Assembly: GCA_964531275.1 (NCBI GenBank)
Contig: CAZHDZ010000002.1
Location: 58,180 to 122,179, forward strand
Length of the DNA: 64,000 bases
DNA from: an uncultured Gammaproteobacteria bacterium
GTDB taxonomy: Bacteria > Patescibacteriota > Microgenomatia > Levybacterales > GWA1-39-11
Direction of reading: 5' to 3'
Every line of letters begins with the position of its first letter. The first letter of the stretch is position 1. The notes under the pieces are model-generated. The model did not search any database and had not been told where the DNA came from. It saw only the letters and a list, made by a program, of their open reading frames with translations. The translations under genes and the position numbers were made by a program. Shown here in pieces: positions 1 through 60,673 of the stretch.

Positions 1-3000
1 AACACAAGATGTTACGTACACGCTTCCTCTAGATGACGGATCAAATAATTATGTTCTAACAACTGATGGTTCTGGGTTGTTGTCATGGCAGTCAGCATCT
101 GGCGTTGGTGCAGGTACCATAACAGCAGTCGGAAACGTTCTTTCAGGAACGGCATTTACTGGAAGCGATTCTCTTTCAAACAAAGGAAACACTCTCGTAT
201 TTGAAGGATCAACTTCAGTTGATGATGCGAATGACATTACGCTAACTGCAAGCAATCCTGTCTCATCCATAATATTTACGCTTCCAGATCTTGGTACAAA
301 CGGCACTTTTGCATTCCTTGAGGGTCTCCAGACTTTTACAGGGGCAAAGACCTTTAATGACATCACCATTGCCGATACAAACATCCCACTGTCAGGAGGA
401 AATACCACTCTGGACGTGACAGGTGGTGCAACTAGAACACTTACGTTGCTCAACTCAACAGGAGGTCAGGTAGCTGATTTTGATCTCTCAGACGGCTCGC
501 TATTAACTGCAGGTACATCAAGACTCACTAATGCAGGAGCTCTTCAAAATATAACCGGGTACAGCCAGTCATCCGGAAACTTCAGCCAGAGTGGCTCTGG
601 TAGTTTCTCAACAGGAACCGGGGCAGTATCTCTTAATGGCGCGACGACTACATCAACAACATTGGTAGTAGGGACCACATTAACAACCGGTGGAAGTGCA
701 AGCGTTTCTGGGAATCTAACTCTTGAAGGTGCTGGTCGATCGATTCAAACAACTGAGAACAACACATTAACACTTGGTGGCGCAACAACCGGAAATATTG
801 ACCTTAACGAAAATACCTATATTCTAGGAAGCAACACATTTAGTGTTGGTACAGGTCTTACTTCGCTTGGAGGAGCAATTAATGTAACCGGCGTTGCTAC
901 GTTTGATAACAACATTACCCAAACGGGTTCATCAACATTCTCAACAGGAACCGGTAATGTTACTTTGAACGGCAATACTACTGTTTCTACTGGTGTTTCT
1001 CTCACAGCAAACGGCCCGGTTGCTCTCGATCCTGATGGTGGTAATGACATTGTTCTTACAACTGCATTCGGAAGTGGTTCATACCTGCAAATAATCGGTC
1101 TTGATACTCAAACAGGTACTCAGCTTTGTATAGATGGTAGTAACCAAGTTGTTAAATGTAGCGCGGGGTCTACAACTTTGCAAGGGGCATATGATGGCGG
1201 CAATACAATAACAACCGCAAATAGCCGTGATATTGCAATTAATCTTGCCGGAAACGAGAATCTAACAGCTACAACATCTGCCGGTTCTAATGGTTATACA
1301 TCTTTTGCTTTGGCAAACGGATCAAATCCAAATCCACCATCCCAATTAGTGCTTATAGATAATCAGGATACAAATGAAGCCCTTCCAGCAGGACTAAGAA
1401 TAAAATCAGCAGGCGGAGGAATAACAACTGCAATTGATCTCTCTGATTCAGATATAGTAAATGCCCTTTCATTGGGTGCAAATGACGTTACTGCAACAAG
1501 CTTTGCAATAACCGGAAGCAATGGAAATATTTCAACAAATGGCACACTAACTGCTCTTGGAGATATTAATGCCAACTCGGGGGTTGTCGCAACAACCCAA
1601 ACCACTGCTTCTCTATTTAACTCAACTGTTACAAATCTTTCAGTTGGCAATGCCGCAACTACGCTTTCATTGGGAGCAGGAACAGGGACAACTACTGTAA
1701 ATAATGCCCTTAATGTAACTGGTCTTTCAACCTTCAATGCGGGGGCAACAATTCCATCAGGTCAGACACTGACGGCAAATGGACCTGTTGTTATCAATCC
1801 AAACCTTGGAAATGATATAACGCTTACAACTGATTATGTTGCTGGATCTGATCTGTATGTACCTGGTTTGGAGACGCCTGGAACTGCCGGAACTGCACTT
1901 TGTATTGAGACAGGCACTGACAGAGTTACAAAATGTTCTGCGTCAACATTTACACTCCAAGGAGCATATGACGGAGGAAATACAATCCTGACAACCGGTG
2001 GACGTGATATAGAATTTGATCTTGCCTCAGATGATAACTTTGCAATTACTACCGTTGCAGGATCGGTAAGCTACTCGGCTTTTGCTCTTGCAGATGGTTC
2101 AAATAGTGCGCCAGCTGGGCAACTAATATTAGTTGAAAATCAAGATCTTAATGAAGTTCTTGCCTCCGGCATAAAAGTTCAGTCTGCTGCAGGTGCAATC
2201 ACAAATGCACTTGACCTTTCAGATGCAGAAATAGTTAATGCGATATCCTTTGGCTTGAACAATATTGATGGTACTAACTTTGATGTCACCGGATCTAATG
2301 GGAATGTTACAACCGCAGGAGACATAGCGATAAATGGTGGAAATCTTACTACCACCCAAGCTGCATTTAATATCTTTAACACAGGTGTTGCTACATTAAA
2401 TATTGGCGGTGATGCAACAGCAATTTCTCTTGGAGATGGAACAAGTGTCACAACAATTAATGACGACCTTGTTGTATCAGGCGGAGTTCTTGATGCACTT
2501 TCTGCTCTTGCTCGAGTTGATTCATTGCAAGTTGGTGGAGGCTACGGTTCGACAGGTACAACAATCACAAATGCAGGAAATATCTCAACAAATGGAACTC
2601 TTACTGTTGATGGTATTTCAACACTAACTGGCTCTATCACAACTGCAGGGGATATTGCTGTAAATGGTGGAAATGTTACAACAACAGCAGGTACTGCTTA
2701 CCTATTTAATAGCGGTGCTACAACATTAAATATCGGTGGTGCTGCAACAACCCTTTCTCTTGGAGCATCAACAGGCACAACAACCGTTAACAACAACCTA
2801 ACGGTATCAGGTCTTATCTTGGCAAACGGCGGTATAACTATTCCAGCAGGTGAAGAACTGGCCGCAAGCGGAAGCGCTTCATTTGCACCAGACTTTACAA
2901 ATGACATAACATTCAATACTGATTCTGACTCCACAATCATCCTAAATGGAATTGGAACCGGAAGTGGAAACAGTCTCTGTCGAGAAGCTGGCACGAATAA

Positions 3001-6000
3001 TTTAGTTGAGTGTTCTGCCTCATCAATCACTTTGCAATCTGCATACAATGGCGGAAATACTATCTCAACTTCAGGTGGTCGAGATATTGCATTCACATTA
3101 AGTAACACTAACTTCAGCGCAACCGCTGCTGCTGGAACCAACTCATTCTCGCAATTTGCACTTGCTAACGGATCAAACGCAAATCCTGCAGGACAGGTTG
3201 TGTTAGTTGAAAATCTTGATACCGACCAGGCCATCGCAAGTGGCATTAGAATCCAGGCAGCCTCTGGAGGAATTACAAATGCACTCGATCTTTCAGATCC
3301 AGAGATTGTAAATGCTTTGTCTCTTGGAGCAAATGATATTACTGCAACTAACTTCTCAATTACAGGATCAACAGGTGCCTTTGCAACAAGCGATTCTATT
3401 ACTGCTTCAGGAGATATCAATGCCAACAGTGGAACAATTGCTTCTAATCAAGCAGCTGGGTTCTTATTTAATGCAGGTGTCTCTAATCTTTCCATAGGCG
3501 AGGATGCATCAACAATATCTCTTGGAGACGCGACAGGTACGATAACAATAAATAACCAGACACTCGCTCTTCCAAATGCAACTTCAATTACAGCAGCAGG
3601 TGCAGGACTTACCATTGGTTCTGTAACCGTGGGTGGTGGTTATGGAACGACTGGCACAACACTTTCAGGAAATGGGGACATTCAGACAAATGGTGCGCTA
3701 ACAGTTGATGGTATCTCTCAACTGTCTGGTAATGTTACGACCAACGGAGATTTGGCAGTTAATGGTGGCAACATAACCTCAACTCAAACGACCGCGAATC
3801 TATTTAACGCAACAGTAACAACCTTAAATATCGGAAGTGCAGCAACAACTGTTAGTTTGGGCGCAAACACCGGTACGACAACCGTAAATAATAATCTAGC
3901 TGTTTCGGATGCATTAACAGTTGGCCAACTTGCTACATTTAACGGTGGCGCTACTATTTCAAATGGAGAACGATTCTTGGCTTCTGGGTCAGCTGAATTT
4001 AATCCGAGTGGTTCAAATGACGTTTCAATTGCCGTTAGCTATAGTGCTGGTTCATACCTCCACATAACAGGTCTTGATACTCAGACCGGTACGACTCTTT
4101 GTATTGATGGATCAAGCAATGTTGTAAGATGCTCAGCTGCTTCAATCACATTGCAGTCTGCATATGATGGTGGAAATACAATTTCAACAACCGGTGGACG
4201 AAATATTGCGTACGTTCTCGCGAATGATGATGACTTTACGGTTACTACACCAGCAGGATCAACTGGTCAAAGCATCTTCTCACTCGCTAACGGCGGAGCA
4301 ACAAGTCCTTCAGAGCTTATCCTTGTATCAAACAATGATGTAGATACAACAATTGCCAACGGAATAACTATAAATTCTGCAGGAGGAGTTATTACTGACG
4401 CTCTTGATCTATCGGACTCTGAAATTGTAAACGCATTAAATCTTGGAGCAAATGATATTACCTCTTCCAACTTTACACTCACCGGTAGCAACGGAAATAT
4501 TTCAACAAATGGAACAATAACTGCTACTGGAGACATAACGACAACCGGCAATCTAGCTGTTAATGGTGGAAATATTACAACTACATCGACTGGCACTGCT
4601 GAAGTATTTAACTCAAATGCTACTGCTCTCAATATTGGTGGCGCTGCCGGCACAATCTCTATCGGTAATGGAACAAGTGTCACAACGGTTAATGATGATC
4701 TCGTTGTCTCTGGGGGCGCCCTTGATGCTCTCTCTGCTCTTGCCCGAGTTGACGGGTTACAAGTTGGTGGAGGATACGGTTCGACAGGTACAACTATTAC
4801 AAATGCTGGAAATATCTCAACCAATGGAACTCTTACTGTTGATGGTATTTCAACACTAACTGGATCTATCACAACTGCAGGGGATATTGCAGTAAATGGC
4901 GGAAATGTTACAACAACAGCTGGTACTGCTTACCTATTTAATAGTGGTGCTACAACATTAAATATTGGAGGGGCTGCAACTGCTATTACACTTGGAGCAA
5001 CCACAGGTACAACAACGGTAAGAAATAATTTGTCAGTATTAGGAAGTGCAAATGTCACCGGGTTCTCAACATTCAACGACAGAACGACTATTACTAACGG
5101 TCAGCAATTTAACGCATCAGGATCTGCTAACTTTAGTCCAAATATTGACAACGATGTTGTGATCAACACTGACGCTGATTCCTTCCTAACGCTTAATGGC
5201 CTTACCACTCCTGGTATTGCAGGGGACGCACTTTGTGTAGATGCATCAAATAACGTAACAAAGTGTTCTACAAATTCTGTTACTTTGCAATCTGCATACA
5301 ACGGCGGAAATACTATCTCAACCAGCGGTGGAAGAGATATTGCTTTTACTCTTAACAATACTAACTTCAGTGCAACTGCAGCAGCAGGAACCAACTCATT
5401 CAGTCAATTTGCATTGGCAAATGGATCTAATGCAAATCCTGCAGGACAAGTTGTGTTAGTTGAAAATCTTGATACAGACGAAGCAATCGCAAGTGGTATT
5501 AGAATCCAGGCTGCCTCTGGAGGAATTACAAATGCACTTGATCTTTCAGATCCTGAGATCGTAAATGCATTATCTCTTGGGGCGAATAACGTAGTTGCAA
5601 CCAATTTCTCAATAGCAGGATCAACTGGATCTATCACAACTGCAGGGGATATTGCTGTAAATGGTGGAAATGTTACAACAACAAATACAACAGCTGCATT
5701 ATTTAATACAAACGCTACAACTCTTTCTATCGGTGGTGCCGCAACGACCTTAACTCTTGGTAATGCTGCCGGCACAACTGCAGTTGCCGGAGGGCTTACT
5801 GTTGGTGGTGGATATGGATCAACCGGTGTAACGTTGTCCTCCGCAGGGGTAATTCAAGCGAACGGAGCCTTAACTGTTGACGGTATCTCAACTTTAACAG
5901 GATCTGTTACAACCGCCGGAGACATTGCGGTTAACGGCGGAAATGTTACGACAACAGCTGGTACTGCTTACTTGTTTGATACTAATGCTACAACATTAAA

Positions 6001-41716: not shown

Positions 41717-41762
41717 AAGATAAGTATATATTTATTGGTGGTTGGTGGCTAGTGAATGGTGA

Positions 41763-42125
41763 CTAGTGGTTTGTGATAAGTGGGTCGCCACTTGATACAT
41801 GAAAATGCAGATGTTTTGAATCCTGATATTTGCCTAAATTTGTTAAGATTCTAGCCTCTCCATATTCTTGTTCAACTTTTTTTGCAATCATTTCAACAAT
41901 TTTTAACAATTCCGTAATTATTTCATCATCTCCCTTATTCCTATTCGTAAATGATGGTATATGTTTTTTGGGAATTACTACAATATGAACTGGCCAAGTT
42001 GGGCGGGTATGATGAAAGGATAAAAAAGAATCGTCTTCATACTCAATCTTAAATGACTTGGTATCTTTGAGGGCAATATCACAATAAAAGTCGGCGCCGG
42101 TATATGGGGAATCTTGTGTGTTCAT
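41763..42125 (-). CDS. HIT-family (histidine triad) nucleotide hydrolase.
   Basis: HLHFHV histidine-triad motif near the C-terminus. 120 aa. Confidence 0.8.
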   Translation of the reverse strand: MNTQDSPYTGADFYCDIALKDTKSFKIEYEDDSFLSFHHTRPTWPVHIVVIPKKHIPSFTNRNKGDDEIITELLKIVEMIAKKVEQEYGEARILTNLGKYQDSKHLHFHVSSGDPLITNH

Positions 42126-42130
42126 AATCT

Positions 42131-42300
42131 ATTGTGGACCCAAGAGGACTCGTTCTGCAACGCAGTGCGAAGCACAATCTGACCTAAAGTATCACGCTCA
42201 ACATGTGATTATTGTGGACGATACAGAATTCGAATCTGTGACCTTTACAATGTCAATGTAACGCTCTACGATTTGCAAAGCAAATTGAGTGCTCCAGCTG
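42131..42300 (-). repeat. Two degenerate partial copies of the tRNA-Val 3' region directly downstream of the intact gene.
   Basis: 42212-42300 retains the D-stem 3' side, an identical anticodon arm (TTACATTGACATTGTAA), and a T-arm and acceptor 3' side (ACAGATTCGAATTCTGT, ATCGTCCA) with compensatory changes, but has no matching acceptor 5' strand. 42135-42152 is an exact 18-nt copy of the T-arm/acceptor 3' end (CGAGTCCTCTTGGGTCCA). All three copies are followed by CAAxA. Confidence 0.6.
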
Positions 42301-42309
42301 AGCTTTTTG

Positions 42310-42384
42310 TGGACCCAAGAGGACTCGAACCTCTGACCTTTACAATGTCAATGTAACGCTCTAACCAAACTGAGCTATGAGTCC
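42310..42384 (-). tRNA. tRNA-Val (anticodon GAC).
   Basis: Minus-strand GGACTCATAGCTCAGTTTGGTTAGAGCGTTACATTGACATTGTAAAGGTCAGAGGTTCGAGTCCTCTTGGGTCCA folds as a cloverleaf with anticodon loop TTGACAT. CCA is not encoded. Confidence 0.8.
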
Positions 42385-53091: not shown

Positions 53092-53181
53092 TGCCGTTTC
53101 TGCCTAAATCGACACCGATATTATACCACCTAAGTTCAAATTTATCAATTCAAATCATGAAATGCAAGTAACAGAATAGTA

Positions 53182-53275
53182 AGAAATTATATCTATTCTG
53201 TTGACGCAAGCTTCGCTTACGTTAAGAAATTATATCTATTCTGTTGACGCAAGCTTCGCTTACGTTAAGAAATTC
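53182..53275. repeat. 43-bp tandem direct repeat (2.2 copies).
   Basis: Unit AGAAATTATATCTATTCTGTTGACGCAAGCTTCGCTTACGTTA recurs at 53182 and 53225 with a partial third copy. Each unit carries a TATAAT on the minus strand and the 14-nt motif GCAAGCTTCGCTTA. Confidence 0.85.
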
Positions 53276-53333
53276 TTAAAATAATAAGGGTTTTTCATCG
53301 TCTACACTCAACTGACGAGAAAAACAGGTTGAA

Positions 53334-54221
53334 TTAAAGTGTGCTGAGGAAGGTGACGGTCTTTTGCTGACGGATAATTGATGCTACTAAATAAGGGTTT
53401 TTCATAATTTCTTCTCTTTCGGTAGGATTTTCAATAGAAGCCAGTGCCTTTTCAATATCTTCTTTATCTACAGTTATTTTCTCTTCATCTGCTATTTTTC
53501 TTAATAAAAATTCTAATTTGAGATCGTTTTCTGCCTTTAGCTTGTATTCATCTCTTAATTTTTCAGCATCAATATTTTTAGATGAAAGATATTGTTCTAG
53601 GGTTAATCCGAGCTTTTTGAGTTCATCTAGCATTTGTGAGAGAAGGCGTGATGTCTCGCTTTCAACAAGCACATCAGGGATAGTGATTTTTGCGGCTTTT
53701 AGTGCTGCCTCCAATATTCCATCAAGGTCTACCTTGCTTTCCTCTTTACCAGGTACAAGGATTTTTGATTTTGCTGTTACTTTTGCTATTTCTTCTTTGT
53801 ATTTGCCCAGTTCAACCATTGGTTCTTCGCAGGTTTGAGCTGTAAATTGAATATCAGTACCTTCAGTAAAAATTTCAATATGAATTTGAGGGCTAATTAT
53901 TGGAGTTAGTTTGTGTTTTGTAATAGCCTCATTGTAGGCAACTCCTACGACTTTCTTAAGAACCTCTTCTTTTACAAGTTCTGGATTGAGTCTTGCCTTT
54001 GCGACATTTTTTGGAGCCTGTCCTGGTCTAAATCCTGCGATCTTAACGCTTTTAATCAGTTCATTTTCAATTGCATCCTGTGCTTTTTGAGCTTGAGTCC
54101 ATGGCACAACAATAGTTAGTTCAAGAGTGCCGTCATCCTTTCGGATCAACCCCTCTTTTCTAGGAGAGTGATCGTGCGCCTGATTTTCGCTTTGTGTAGC
54201 AGGTTTGTCTGATTTAGCCAT
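53334..54221 (-). CDS. tig: Trigger factor, short form: ribosome-binding N-domain plus C-domain, no PPIase domain.
   Basis: Signature GFRPGQAPKNV in the N-domain. It is 295 aa, whereas canonical trigger factor is ~430 aa. Confidence 0.7.
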   Translation of the reverse strand: MAKSDKPATQSENQAHDHSPRKEGLIRKDDGTLELTIVVPWTQAQKAQDAIENELIKSVKIAGFRPGQAPKNVAKARLNPELVKEEVLKKVVGVAYNEAITKHKLTPIISPQIHIEIFTEGTDIQFTAQTCEEPMVELGKYKEEIAKVTAKSKILVPGKEESKVDLDGILEAALKAAKITIPDVLVESETSRLLSQMLDELKKLGLTLEQYLSSKNIDAEKLRDEYKLKAENDLKLEFLLRKIADEEKITVDKEDIEKALASIENPTEREEIMKNPYLVASIIRQQKTVTFLSTL

Positions 54222-54270
54222 GAAGGGAATTCTACCAAATACAGTCCTTAATGTCTAGATCTGAGGCTAA

Positions 54271-55212
54271 TTACTCCTGCCACAGCTGTAGTAGTCCAAA
54301 AAAAATGAAGAGTGCGATAAGAATAAAACCTTCTTTTCGTGACAACTCTTTTTTACTTCGTGCAAAAAAGAAAAATATCAAAAGTCCTACAACAAGCATT
54401 GCAAATGCGGGCAGAAAGTGCTCTGTAACAACTGCTGTTTTGCTGTAGATAATACCGAAAAGACCAAATAATAACGTATTTGCGGCCGCGCTTCCCACAT
54501 AATCTCCAAAAGCTACATCCTTTTTTCCTGAAATAACAGCCTTTATTGCAAGTGACAACTCAGGAAGATTTGTGCCAAAAGAAAGCAGAATAAGACTAAT
54601 AAAAAAGGGTGAAATGGTAAAAAAGTCAGCAAAGTACAGCGCACCCTCAACTATATAGTGGCTTGCAACAAACACTAGCCCCACACCGAAAAGGACATTA
54701 AATATGTCTTTCAATGAATACGAATTTGAATTGAGAAATGCTTGATTGGCTGTATCCAGAACGCCCTTCTCTCGTTGTATTAGGAAAACAAGAGCAATGT
54801 ATAAAGCTATAAGTACTATTGACTCAAAGACACTAACAGTGCCGTCAAGAACAAAAAAAGCAGGCGTTAACATTACAAAAAAAGAGAAAAAAAGGTTTTT
54901 TTGACTAATGCTTTTATGAAATTTGAGGCCATTTCCAAATATAGCAAGAAGGGGTATTACAAATAAGAAGAGTACAGGAACACCACCGATTAAATTCCCC
55001 ATATAAATTGTAGGTTTGCCTTCGCTAATTGCAGTCATTCCTACAGCAAATTCAGGTGTTGAGGTAAGAATTCCAAGTACCAAAAAAGAAAAAGCAAAGG
55101 AGGAGATTTTGAGCTTCTTGGAAAAATGATCTGCTGACGCAACAATTTTCCCAGCGCCATACCAAATCATGACAAAAGAGCCTAAGAAGACGAGAAGCTG
55201 GAGAATGGGCAT
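54271..55212 (-). CDS. CaCA-family cation/Ca2+ antiporter (YrbG-like).
   Basis: Two alpha-repeats, the second carrying GTNLPELSLAI. 10 TM helices. 313 aa. Confidence 0.75.
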   Translation of the reverse strand: MPILQLLVFLGSFVMIWYGAGKIVASADHFSKKLKISSFAFSFLVLGILTSTPEFAVGMTAISEGKPTIYMGNLIGGVPVLFLFVIPLLAIFGNGLKFHKSISQKNLFFSFFVMLTPAFFVLDGTVSVFESIVLIALYIALVFLIQREKGVLDTANQAFLNSNSYSLKDIFNVLFGVGLVFVASHYIVEGALYFADFFTISPFFISLILLSFGTNLPELSLAIKAVISGKKDVAFGDYVGSAAANTLLFGLFGIIYSKTAVVTEHFLPAFAMLVVGLLIFFFFARSKKELSRKEGFILIALFIFFGLLQLWQE

Positions 55213-55262
55213 GCAATTAGTATAGTTGAAACTAAAACTTTAAGACAAGAAGGGAGGGGCTG

Positions 55263-55368
55263 GTGCCCGAGAGAGTGGTTCGACAGGCTCACCATTTGAA
55301 AAGAGTTCTTAATAAGTGCCCGAGAGAGTGGTTCGACAGGCTCACCATTTGAAAAGAGTTCTTAATAA
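55263..55368. repeat. 53-bp tandem repeat (2 copies), each starting with the last 12-13 nt of tRNA-Leu(TAG).
   Basis: GTGCCCGAGAGAGTGGTTCGACAGGCTCACCATTTGAAAAGAGTTCTTAATAA occurs twice (55263, 55316) and abuts the tRNA 3' end at 55369-55371. Confidence 0.85.
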
Positions 55369-55370
55369 GT

Positions 55371-55453
55371 GCCCGAGAGAGGACTTGAACCTCCACACCA
55401 TTACTGGTACTAGTTCCTAAAACTAGCGTGTATACCATTTCACCACTCGGGCG
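55371..55453 (-). tRNA. tRNA-Leu (anticodon TAG).
   Basis: Anticodon loop TTTAGGA and a long variable arm. Acceptor pairs GCCCGAG/CTCGGGC. Confidence 0.8.
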
Positions 55454-55574
55454 TATCATAGTTGCCGAGTGTAGTGATCACTCGGGCAAAAAACTCAGCC
55501 ATATGGCCGTAAGGGATATTATAACTTAAAAAACGGAGAATTTTAATCACCAACCACTAGCCACCAACCACCAA

Positions 55575-56159
55575 TTAAATAGTTAGCTCCAGGCTGTGCA
55601 TTCCAAGACGTGCATATTCAGCCTCAATTTTATTCATAAAGAATCTAATTCTAGGAGCCCATGTAGGGCTTTCAGAATAAATTGGCGCTATAGACTCAAC
55701 GGTAGTTGCACCACGTGATGCGTACTTTGTTTTAAGGGCACCGAGAACAGTAGTAATACCATCCTCTACAGATTCAAAGTAAATATGACCCCCGCCCCAC
55801 CCATAGGAGTTATGTGATCCAGGCATTTGATGAAGCCCAAAAGATGACTCAAGTCCAGCAATAGCAGGAAGAAGTCTCCAGTCCATTTCATTCTTATCCG
55901 CTTCCTCAATATAGTAAGCAGCATATGGAGCCAAGGGTGAATTATACCGTTCTAATACATTTTGCAGGGCTACTACCCTCATGTCTTTAGACTGAATAGC
56001 CAAGACCTGTGTATTAGGTACAGTTGTTGCTGCAGATACAGTTGCAGCGTTAACCGCAAATATAGCTGTCATTATGAACAGTGTTATGATTTTTTTCATA
56101 TTTGGGAAAACCTTTGGGGGTTGTCCTAAATATGAGTCTTGGTGAAGATCCAAGACCAA
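55575..56159 (-). CDS. Secreted SLT-like (lytic-transglycosylase-like) protein.
   Basis: Signal peptide. Motif LLPAIAGLESSFG resembles the AIAxQESxF catalytic-Glu motif of family-1 lytic transglycosylases. It is a paralog of the next gene. Confidence 0.4.
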   Translation of the reverse strand: MVLDLHQDSYLGQPPKVFPNMKKIITLFIMTAIFAVNAATVSAATTVPNTQVLAIQSKDMRVVALQNVLERYNSPLAPYAAYYIEEADKNEMDWRLLPAIAGLESSFGLHQMPGSHNSYGWGGGHIYFESVEDGITTVLGALKTKYASRGATTVESIAPIYSESPTWAPRIRFFMNKIEAEYARLGMHSLELTI

Positions 56160-56990: not shown

Positions 56991-57050
56991 AAACTGATAT
57001 ATAATAATTTTGATTTGCCCGGATGATCGCTACATCCGGGATGAAAGTTG

Positions 57051-57136: not shown

Positions 57137-57241
57137 AGCTTTGCTTGGTGTAACCTCAGCTTAGCTGAGGCACACTATATAGGCATTCCTTTGCTCGCAA
57201 AAAAGATGGTTTGAGTCCGAGTTTCTCCCTGCCCCAGATGT

Positions 57242-60313: not shown

Positions 60314-60377
60314 AGCTTAGCTTGGTGTTAGGTCAGCTTAGCTGACCCACCATCAGGCAAAGTAGTTTGACCAGTAT

Positions 60378-60450: not shown

Positions 60451-60673
60451 CAAAAAAAGTGCATTTTTTTGCACAAAATTGAAATTTAAATAGTTAGCCA
60501 CGCCTTGCGATGGTTAACAAAAGGTGTATACAGAACACCTGCGGCGGTGGCGAAAGTCATATTGAAAATTAAAGAAAAGTGCGACGGTGAGCGGAAGGTG
60601 TTATAAAATGCACCTGCGGCGGTGAGAACCTTGCTTTTAGCAAGGACCTCGCCACCACAAAATTGAAAATTTT

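Follow-up and report, generated by a model that had tools for sequence, protein, structure and literature searches.

The DNA analysed here is a 64-kb stretch from a bacterium of the candidate phyla radiation (CPR, Patescibacteria), hereafter called the window; its coordinates are used throughout, and L-numbers designate loci or contigs of relatives. On its minus strand lies a tRNA-Leu(UAG) gene, identical in sequence to the tRNA of the relative L004, and behind the 3′ end of this gene lies a tandem repeat (Table 1). The repeat is real: Tandem Repeats Finder reported a period of 53, 2.2 copies, 100% matches, and a score of 238, and a repeat search of the window returned two 53-nt copies identical at 53 of 53 positions, which bears out the two perfect 53-bp units that an earlier note on this DNA had placed beside tRNA-Leu. 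Read on the tRNA strand, the tRNA ends in ...GTCCTCTCTCGGGCAC and is followed by a first unit, composed of a 40-nt spacer (TTATTAAGAACTCTTTTCAAATGGTGAGCCTGTCGAACCA) and a 13-nt core (CTCTCTCGGGCAC), by an identical second unit, and then by CAGCCCC, owing to which the last core happens to read ...GGGCA-CCA. The third core is the 3′ end of the tRNA itself, so that core and spacer alternate as A-B-A-B-A. The earlier note let the units begin with the tRNA tail; this holds when the plus strand is read, whereas on the tRNA strand they end with its last 13 nt. The core occurs three times in the window (0.03 expected) and is thus a direct repeat identical to part of a tRNA gene, as in integration-type arrangements. 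The spacer occurs twice (0 expected), and only in the two units, even with up to three mismatches allowed across the 64 kb.

That each unit joins a copied tRNA 3′ terminus to DNA unrelated to the tRNA, as had been claimed, is supported by these comparisons. A stretch of 34 nt was 74% identical to the tRNA end in the repeat search, the core included; outside the 13-nt core, the similarity between spacer and tRNA was not significant (p ∼0.07 without gaps, p ∼0.16 by local alignment). The T-loop-like GGTTCGA that had been read into the spacer did not stand: it does not lie on the strand of the tRNA but on the other one, and the longest match to the reverse-complemented 3′ part of the tRNA is 5 nt, which 42% of shuffled sequences equal.

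The spacer was also sought in other DNA. A 35-mer of it had no match in IMG/VR, the 22-nt junction of spacer and core had none in the metagenomes of the Joint Genome Institute (JGI), BLASTN against GenBank phages returned nothing, and BLASTN against the PLSDB plasmids returned chance matches of 21 nt only (E ∼0.9); these searches need exact or near matches and would miss diverged relatives. At this locus, the closest relatives do not conserve the spacer (BLASTN comparison with L001–L003). The suggestion that it might be the end of a mobile element or plasmid was thus checked, and it was found at the end of no mobile element, plasmid, or phage in these collections. A dispersed repeat resembling repetitive extragenic palindromic (REP) elements or miniature inverted-repeat transposable elements was rejected on the confinement of the 40-mer to the two units, and the generic REP element that the earlier note had raised as an alternative falls away with it. 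An array of clustered regularly interspaced short palindromic repeats was rejected as well: both "spacers" are identical, and Pfam detected no cas domain in the six neighboring open reading frames (ORFs) tested. So was a structured RNA or terminator, as the unit folds no better than its shuffles (z = +0.32 and +0.68), no RNA family in Rfam matched the units, and no terminator-like site (hairpin plus T run) was found within them. The units contain no credible ORF. Because the scan found no terminator-like site between the tRNA and the downstream gene for a Na+/Ca2+ exchanger family protein either, the units are probably transcribed as part of the tRNA trailer.

The same anatomy recurs at other tRNA genes. 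Within 250 nt of each of the 51 tRNA genes in the loci collected, further copies of its final 12 nt (≤1 mismatch) were sought. Downstream copies were found only at Leu(UAG/CAG/GAG) genes and at tRNA-Val(GAC) of the window (for the offsets, see Table 1), and most Leu tRNA genes are without units; upstream, none was found, except for one case in L018, where two tRNA-Leu(CAG) genes lie side by side and account for it. Two 54-nt units are present in both L016, a genome bin, and L018, a JGI contig, which are independent assemblies, and L010 has a single unit, with ends as in the L016 and L018 units and a different middle. Therefore, such arrays are real, and their copy number changes. The spacers in the units of relatives are unrelated to their tRNAs, apart from a piece of the T arm in inverted orientation, which is significant in L010, L014, and L016 (p ∼0.001–0.03). 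A corresponding inverted piece in the window spacer was considered and rejected because, unlike those, it was not significant.

At tRNA-Val(GAC) (42384–42309, minus strand), where the earlier note had seen the same signature, tRNA pieces do lie downstream as well, but the locus is richer (window 42134–42384), with two further pieces behind the gene. The first is a 5′-truncated second tRNA-Val carrying a hairpin in its D loop (42285–42221; Rfam tRNA, 31 bits), the T arm of which matches tRNA-Val of L004; the second is a modified 3′ fragment (∼42201–42134) that ends in the last 12 nt of the current tRNA. In this fragment, the T loop is replaced by a two-hairpin module (GATTGTGCTTCGCAC...GAAC), as in the tRNA-Leu fragments of other genomes. 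In such displaced 3′ halves, G(G/A)ATTG, a hairpin of 4 bp with a 3-nt loop (GTGC..GCAC or GTAC..GTAC), a second hairpin, and GAAC stand in place of the T-loop GGTTC; the module is conserved between the Leu(UAG) fragments of four genomes and the Val(GAC) fragment of the window. When viral contigs were searched for it, the structured pattern had 0 matches and a 15-mer had 58, all in unrelated contexts; a pattern for the split 5′ half had 0 matches in IMG/VR.

The interval in which the repeat lies is hypervariable in relatives. The closest of them (∼82% identical in nucleotides, and 92% in the amino acids of the exchanger) are homologous to the window up to 55231 and again from 55572 on; between these points, the match is confined to ∼70 nt of the tRNA. 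One border is the exchanger gene, the best homologues of which are found in Levy-, Gottesman-, Shapiro-, and Roizmanbacteria, in keeping with the CPR host; the other border that is fixed in relatives, judged by synteny, is the gene for a conserved 174-aa protein. Between them, cargo genes, tRNA orientation, and 5′ and 3′ tRNA fragments vary. L004 has the plain tRNA and two unknown ORFs, L002 a 252-aa ORF, L005 a MazG-like ORF and an inverted tRNA segment, L010 and L079 other small ORFs, and the intervals of L011, L016, and L078 are almost empty. The interval is a recombination hot spot in this lineage. Several of the bins compared (L007, L009–L011, and L014–L016; GTDB) are labeled "uncultured Gammaproteobacteria bacterium" despite loci that are typical of CPR bacteria, which looks like an artefact of submission labeling.

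In the relatives, tRNA genes are being replaced by small cassettes. In five of them (L002, L005, L011, L016, and L078), tRNA-Leu(UAG) is nested: an old 5′ half that ends in the anticodon loop (...GCTAGTTTTA) is followed by a hairpin, a complete new tRNA-Leu(UAG), ∼13 nt, and the old 3′ half (GAACTAG...), the acceptor strand of which is complementary to the old 5′ half. The acceptor stem of the new tRNA differs from the old one and is internally matched, and one acceptor variant is the "old" one in one genome and the "new" one in another. The strands directly flanking the new tRNA are complementary to each other, with compensatory differences between loci; ranked by the energy of this leader–trailer duplex, all five nested tRNAs are among the top 10 of 55 tRNAs.

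Following the repeat into relatives exposed pairs of loci before and after such a replacement. L016 and L018 are 96–98% identical over 1.1 and 1.6 kb; relative to L016, a 378-bp insertion in L018 takes the place of 19 nt, of which 3 belong to the flank and ∼16 to the start of the resident tRNA-Leu(CAG). It carries the gene for a protein of 79 aa with a GIY-YIG domain (PF01541, E = 1e-17). A complete new tRNA-Leu(CAG), whose acceptor stem differs, comes 4 nt after this ORF and is followed by a GC-rich hairpin. Beyond the insertion lie the remainder of the truncated old tRNA and two older 54-nt units. In the second pair (98.7–99% identity), tRNA-Ile(UAU) is intact in L083, the empty site, and in L085/L086 exactly 2 central anticodon nt of it are replaced by 116 nt, which comprise CCGACAAAATTT, a complete but different tRNA-Ile(UAU), CAGAAAATTTTGTCG, which repeats the leader perfectly in inverted orientation, and a hairpin. 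The new cassette in L085 sits next to a GIY-YIG gene that is unchanged compared with L083. Moreover, in L091 a new tRNA-Val(CAC) with GC-rich inverted repeats on either side interrupts the D loop of the resident tRNA-Val(CAC).

Homologues of the 79-aa GIY-YIG protein are widespread in CPR bacteria (387 matches at E ≤ 1e-8). Such an ORF was found next to a tRNA gene in the relatives L018, L014, and L081–L093, and in five of six contexts an ORF of 73–79 aa lies 2–55 nt upstream of a tRNA gene on the same strand (Leu-CAG twice, Ile-UAU, Val-CAC, and Gly-GCC). Several of these ORFs are immediately preceded by GC-rich hairpins (CCTGCCCGC...GCGGGCGGG) that split remnants of tRNA D loops. In the collection of papers searched, no description of tRNA-linked GIY-YIG genes or of nested tRNA genes in CPR bacteria was found; homing-endonuclease insertions in CPR rRNA genes are already known (PMC11270868).

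Taken by itself, the repeat is ordinary and belongs with known repeats that contain tRNA ends and with tRNA gene fragments. In Escherichia coli tyrTV, too, a tandem repeat lies directly behind a tRNA gene, and each unit carries terminal nucleotides of the tRNA; there are three copies of 178 bp, and the tRNA-proximal one overlaps the last 19 nt of tyrV, as checked in the sequence. In contrast to the window, the unit there measures 178 rather than 53 nt, its copies are 95% rather than 100% identical, and it carries the annotated tpr and rttR. Similarity in sequence between the two kinds of unit is not apparent, judged from unit length, ORFs, and RNA families rather than from a direct alignment.

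With somewhat better than even confidence, the repeat is explained as a nonfunctional scar of breakage or recombination in the 3′ trailer of tRNA-Leu(UAG) that was doubled by slippage. In a first step, the 3′ region of the tRNA gene would have been broken and then repaired or recombined, leaving 40 nt of unrelated filler and a second copy of the last 13 nt directly behind the gene (A-B-A). Breakage or recombination is proposed as the source of this first extra core because a simple tandem duplication gives A-B-A-B rather than A-B-A, and a 13-nt repeat by chance is very improbable. In a second step, the direct repeats of 13 nt would have mispaired, either in replication or in unequal recombination, and thereby added the second 53-nt unit. 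This step appears to be recent because the two units are perfectly identical, without any divergence. The same genome offers a precedent, another perfect tandem duplication, of 43 bp (53180–53274). The units probably do nothing but lengthen the tRNA trailer by 106 nt. Taken alone, the repeat is a small scar without evident function, and its value lies in marking a hot spot at which an essential tRNA gene of a genome-reduced CPR bacterium is being rearranged.

As the agent of the break, a nuclease is favored over an integrase. Beside freshly replaced tRNA genes in relatives, small GIY-YIG genes and tRNA cassettes flanked by inverted repeats were seen, and classical integrating elements were not, which leaves GIY-YIG as the only agent observed beside fresh events. 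The loss of exactly 2 nt in L085 corresponds to the length of the overhang left by GIY-YIG enzymes such as SegB of phage T4. This enzyme, encoded in a tRNA cluster, has the T-loop motif as its target and cuts so that 2-nt overhangs remain (PMC2330249). The motif it targets is GGTTCRANTCC, and it drives segmental and tandem amplification of the tRNA region (PMC13096335); both the target and the amplification speak for the nuclease route.

Several observations weigh against this explanation. Slippage is deduced from the identity of the units alone, and the two-unit copy number rests on one assembly. The connection between the window repeat and the nuclease-linked turnover in relatives is circumstantial, because the window has no GIY-YIG ORF (tblastn, and a profile hidden Markov model built from three sequences, in six frames over the 64 kb) and a before/after pair is not available for this locus. 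Pfam revealed no other mobility gene in the 16 window ORFs tested, recombinase families included; a bulk Pfam scan of 102 ORFs listed the 25 most frequent families, and single matches could be hidden in it. The window spacer has neither significant similarity to the tRNA nor a significant inverted T-arm piece. Finally, a period of 53–57 nt recurs at independent loci, for which random repair does not account and which could reflect a constraint or a function.

A further-reaching explanation is held more tentatively, at somewhat worse than even odds: the repeat may be the eroded and amplified 3′ remnant left by a hitherto undescribed system of tRNA-gene turnover in CPR bacteria. Essential tRNA genes would serve as homing targets, and their destruction would be compensated by the incoming copy. 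In the relatives, complete replacement tRNA genes bracketed by inverted repeats are indeed inserted in the anticodon or D loop of a resident gene with the same anticodon, exactly 2 nt being lost in the one case mapped precisely, and the displaced halves persist, gain hairpin insertions, and become duplicated. If this is true, selfish cassettes of the SegB type, "nuclease plus tRNA", reach beyond phages into cellular genomes, there is an explanation for the many pseudo-tRNA pieces by which the annotation of tRNAs is confused in these lineages, and rapid turnover of tRNA acceptor stems acquires a concrete mechanism. SegB of phages T4 and T6, a free-standing homing endonuclease, resembles the arrangement in the relatives in that a GIY-YIG gene lies beside tRNA genes and carries neighboring tRNA genes along. 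The presence/absence polymorphism of a GIY-YIG ORF together with a new tRNA (L016 versus L018) and the insertion that replaces exactly 2 nt (L085) are further likenesses. Unlike SegB, however, the CPR proteins comprise 73–79 aa and only the catalytic domain, without the DNA-binding part of SegB, their nuclease activity is predicted, and their genes reside in cellular genomes rather than phages, with none in the window. Nested loci in which a new tRNA lies between an old 5′ and an old 3′ half also recall the tRNA-dependent lysogeny of mycobacteriophages, in which the host's tRNA gene is destroyed by an element that, on entering, supplies a tRNA of the same type as compensation (PMC10865867). 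There, in contrast, a tyrosine integrase and a whole prophage are involved, whereas the inserts in CPR bacteria are ∼115–380 bp long and have no integrase; the window's own tRNA, moreover, is intact rather than split.

Among the alternatives, a classical attachment-site (att) remnant fares best, although it is unlikely: an element with a tyrosine or serine integrase would have entered the tRNA 3′ end through the 13-nt identity, its body would have been deleted down to 40 nt, and the attR-like unit would then have been duplicated. Foreign DNA next to a short, exact duplicate of the 3′ end of a tRNA is indeed the textbook signature of integration. Integrative elements leave partial tRNA genes (PMC9897764), and islands with stacked partial tRNAs, the tycheposons of Prochlorococcus, are known (bioRxiv 10.1101/2020.12.28.424599); with their attL and attR sites, the window shares the exact copy beside unrelated DNA and, in relatives, the variable cargo, since small cargo genes lie at exactly this site and the tRNA segment is inverted in some of them. 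In the distant CPR lineage Saccharibacteria (UBA5148), a 515-aa large serine recombinase (Resolvase, Recombinase, and Zn ribbon; L008 759–2303) abuts tRNA-Leu(UAG), its gene ending inside the tRNA 3′ end on the opposite strand, so that an element may have integrated there at the same type of tRNA. Against an att origin, Pfam found no integrase or recombinase in the 16 window ORFs tested or in 10 cargo ORFs of relatives at this site, merely 40 nt lie between the repeats instead of an element body, the units are directly in tandem, and the spacer was not found in the viral, plasmid, phage, and metagenome collections searched. The fresh replacements in relatives, too, proceed without an integrase; they replace 2 nt inside a tRNA loop and do not duplicate an att core.

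That the units function as a trailer is doubtful. In this case, the copies of the acceptor 3′ strand and a leader hairpin would act in folding, processing, or stability of the pre-tRNA, or as decoys for an enzyme that recognizes the tRNA 3′ end. The leader hairpin upstream of the window tRNA contains a copy of the first 9 nt of the tRNA (GCCCGAGTG), and such hairpins also precede tRNA-Leu(CAG) of the window (57017–57040, plus strand) and Leu tRNAs in L010, L011, and L078. In all five Leu cases, the hairpin matches the acceptor stem of its own tRNA (stems GCCCGGATG, GCCCGAGTG, and GCCCGAATG in a survey of 5′-end copies), and the loops measure 7–8 nt (ATCGCTA or ATCACTA in three cases, and AGATCGC or AGATCGAG in the other two). 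The window hairpin had been considered a remnant of an old tRNA 5′ half, a candidate weakened by the like hairpins before tRNA-Leu(CAG), which has no 3′ units, and before the Leu tRNAs of those relatives. A functional trailer is favored by these hairpins, by units of 53–57 nt downstream of several Leu tRNA genes, by the complementary leaders and trailers with compensatory changes at the nested loci, and by the scan for terminator-like sites, which found none between tRNA and units. However, not even the closest relatives have conserved the sequence of the units, and units are lacking at most Leu tRNA genes. A stable fold of the unit is absent as well, and so is leader–trailer complementarity at the window tRNA (−1.1 kcal/mol, near the bottom of the 55 tRNAs compared). 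The perfect identity of the units points to recency rather than to selective maintenance.

More improbable still is a local duplication of the last 53 nt of the tRNA itself, in which the inner 40 nt decayed and the 13 nt were kept by gene conversion before a second duplication took place. The unit is as long as the stretch of the tRNA between anticodon loop and 3′ end, a gapped alignment pairs TTATTAAGAACT with the anticodon loop and stem (TT-TTAGGAACT) and AATGGTG with the variable arm, and displaced 3′ halves in relatives start at the same point (GAACTAG...). Together with the 34-nt similarity described above, these colinear motifs are suggestive; nonetheless, the similarity outside the core is not significant, and 40 nt would have to diverge to saturation beside 13 perfect nt, although the two units do not differ at any position. 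Decay from a copied tRNA 3′ half was therefore kept as a minor candidate for the unit.

The chance that the array is an assembly artefact, with one unit, none, or another number in the true genome, is very small: the window does come from a metagenome-type assembly, in which perfect short tandem repeats are error-prone, and no second assembly covering the repeat was found, but the array spans only 119 nt and can be bridged by single reads and large k-mers, and analogous two-unit arrays occur in the independent assemblies of L016 and L018. Look-ups of the exact proteins of both flanking genes found no independent assembly of the same strain. A look-up of trigger factor led to a 1.9-kb Logan contig (run SRR12762304) that is 100% identical to window 53245–55147; it ends 116 nt before the repeat. 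Its other end, at 53245, falls within the perfect 43-bp repeat, as would be the case if the reads contain such repeats.

Table 1. Positions of the repeat, of neighboring features, and of related features in relatives (window coordinates unless a locus is named; offsets are those of downstream tail copies).
Feature	Position	Strand	Basis
Perfect tandem repeat, entire	55263–55381		Tandem Repeats Finder
Functional tRNA-Leu(UAG) gene	55370–55452	−	ARAGORN 55369–55452; Rfam tRNA 55370–55452, 57.5 bits
Third, partial repeat copy: last 13 nt of the tRNA, including the C after the discriminator base	55369–55381	−	
Unit 1, tRNA-proximal: 40-nt spacer TTATTAAGAACTCTTTTCAAATGGTGAGCCTGTCGAACCA and 13-nt core CTCTCTCGGGCAC	55316–55368 (core 55316–55328)	−	
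Unit 2, distal: 53/53 identical to unit 1	55263–55315 (core 55263–55275)	−	
Leader hairpin: copy of the first 9 nt of the tRNA (GCCCGAGTG), loop ATCACTA, complement CACTCGG(C)	55464–55487	−	
Candidate promoter upstream of the tRNA, TTAAAA-17-TATAAT	55518–55546	−	Consensus scan, 10/12 matches; consensus match only
Candidate promoter of the exchanger gene, outside the repeat, TTGTCT-18-TATACT	55219–55248	−	Consensus scan
Na+/Ca2+ exchanger family protein, 313 aa, downstream flank	54271–55212	−	Pfam PF01699, E = 4e-41
Conserved 174-aa protein, function unassigned, upstream flank	55575–56099	−	ORF and start-codon choice, synteny
Hot-spot interval	55232–55571		BLASTN of L001–L003 against the window
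Tail copies, window Leu(UAG)	offsets 53 and 106 nt		
Tail copies, L016 and L018 Leu(CAG)	offsets 54 and 108 nt		
Tail copy, L010 Leu(CAG)	offset 57 nt		
Tail copy, L014 Leu(GAG)	offset 54 nt		
Tail copy, L007 Leu(UAG)	offset 101 nt		
Tail copy, window Val(GAC)	offset 175 nt		
Nested tRNA loci	L085 2773–2888; L091 2743–2945; L002 4841–5067; L078 2383–2640		
GIY-YIG domain-only ORFs	L018 1115–1351; L014 3322–3570; L081 844–1083; L083 2501–2737; L091 2501–2740		
Low-complexity tandem repeats	window 55548–55574 and 41738–41776; L002 ∼4740–4790; L005 3285–3340; L015 ∼1990–2020		

Beside other tRNA genes of the window, further fragments and trailers were observed. Upstream of tRNA-Gly(GCC) lie two extra copies of its 5′ end (GCGGCGGTG; 60541–60549 and 60616–60662, plus strand), the second of which is part of a "collapsed" tRNA-Gly consisting of the 5′ acceptor strand, a hairpin, and a strand resembling the 3′ acceptor; a collapsed tRNA-Gly is also present in L014, where it overlaps the stop codon of the GIY-YIG ORF. 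Two-hairpin trailers that are 81% alike come after tRNA-Leu(CAG) and tRNA-Val(UAC) (57137–57173 and 60314–60350, plus strand); their second stems differ by compensatory changes (CCTCAGC/GCTGAGG versus GGTCAGC/GCTGACC), and their final letters, ...GGCAC or ...CCCAC, resemble the tail of the preceding tRNA. A related motif, (C/T)TCAGTGCAAGCAC, occurs after Leu tRNAs in L006, L007, L014, and L016.

The −10 region of the candidate exchanger promoter is conserved in relatives. Short low-complexity tandem repeats lie just past the stop codons of the genes bordering the tRNA hot spots, in the window as well as in relatives (CACCAAC, 3.9 copies; GTGGTTGGTGACTA, 2.8 copies; runs of TAGCTTC; and others). 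The 43-bp tandem repeat (2.2 copies) is located in the intergenic region between the trigger-factor and DUF5660 genes; on its minus strand, TTGCGT...TATAAT resembles a promoter. This region is repetitive in relatives, too. The first 24.7 kb of the window are filled by a single ORF of 8,234 codons (77–24781, plus strand).

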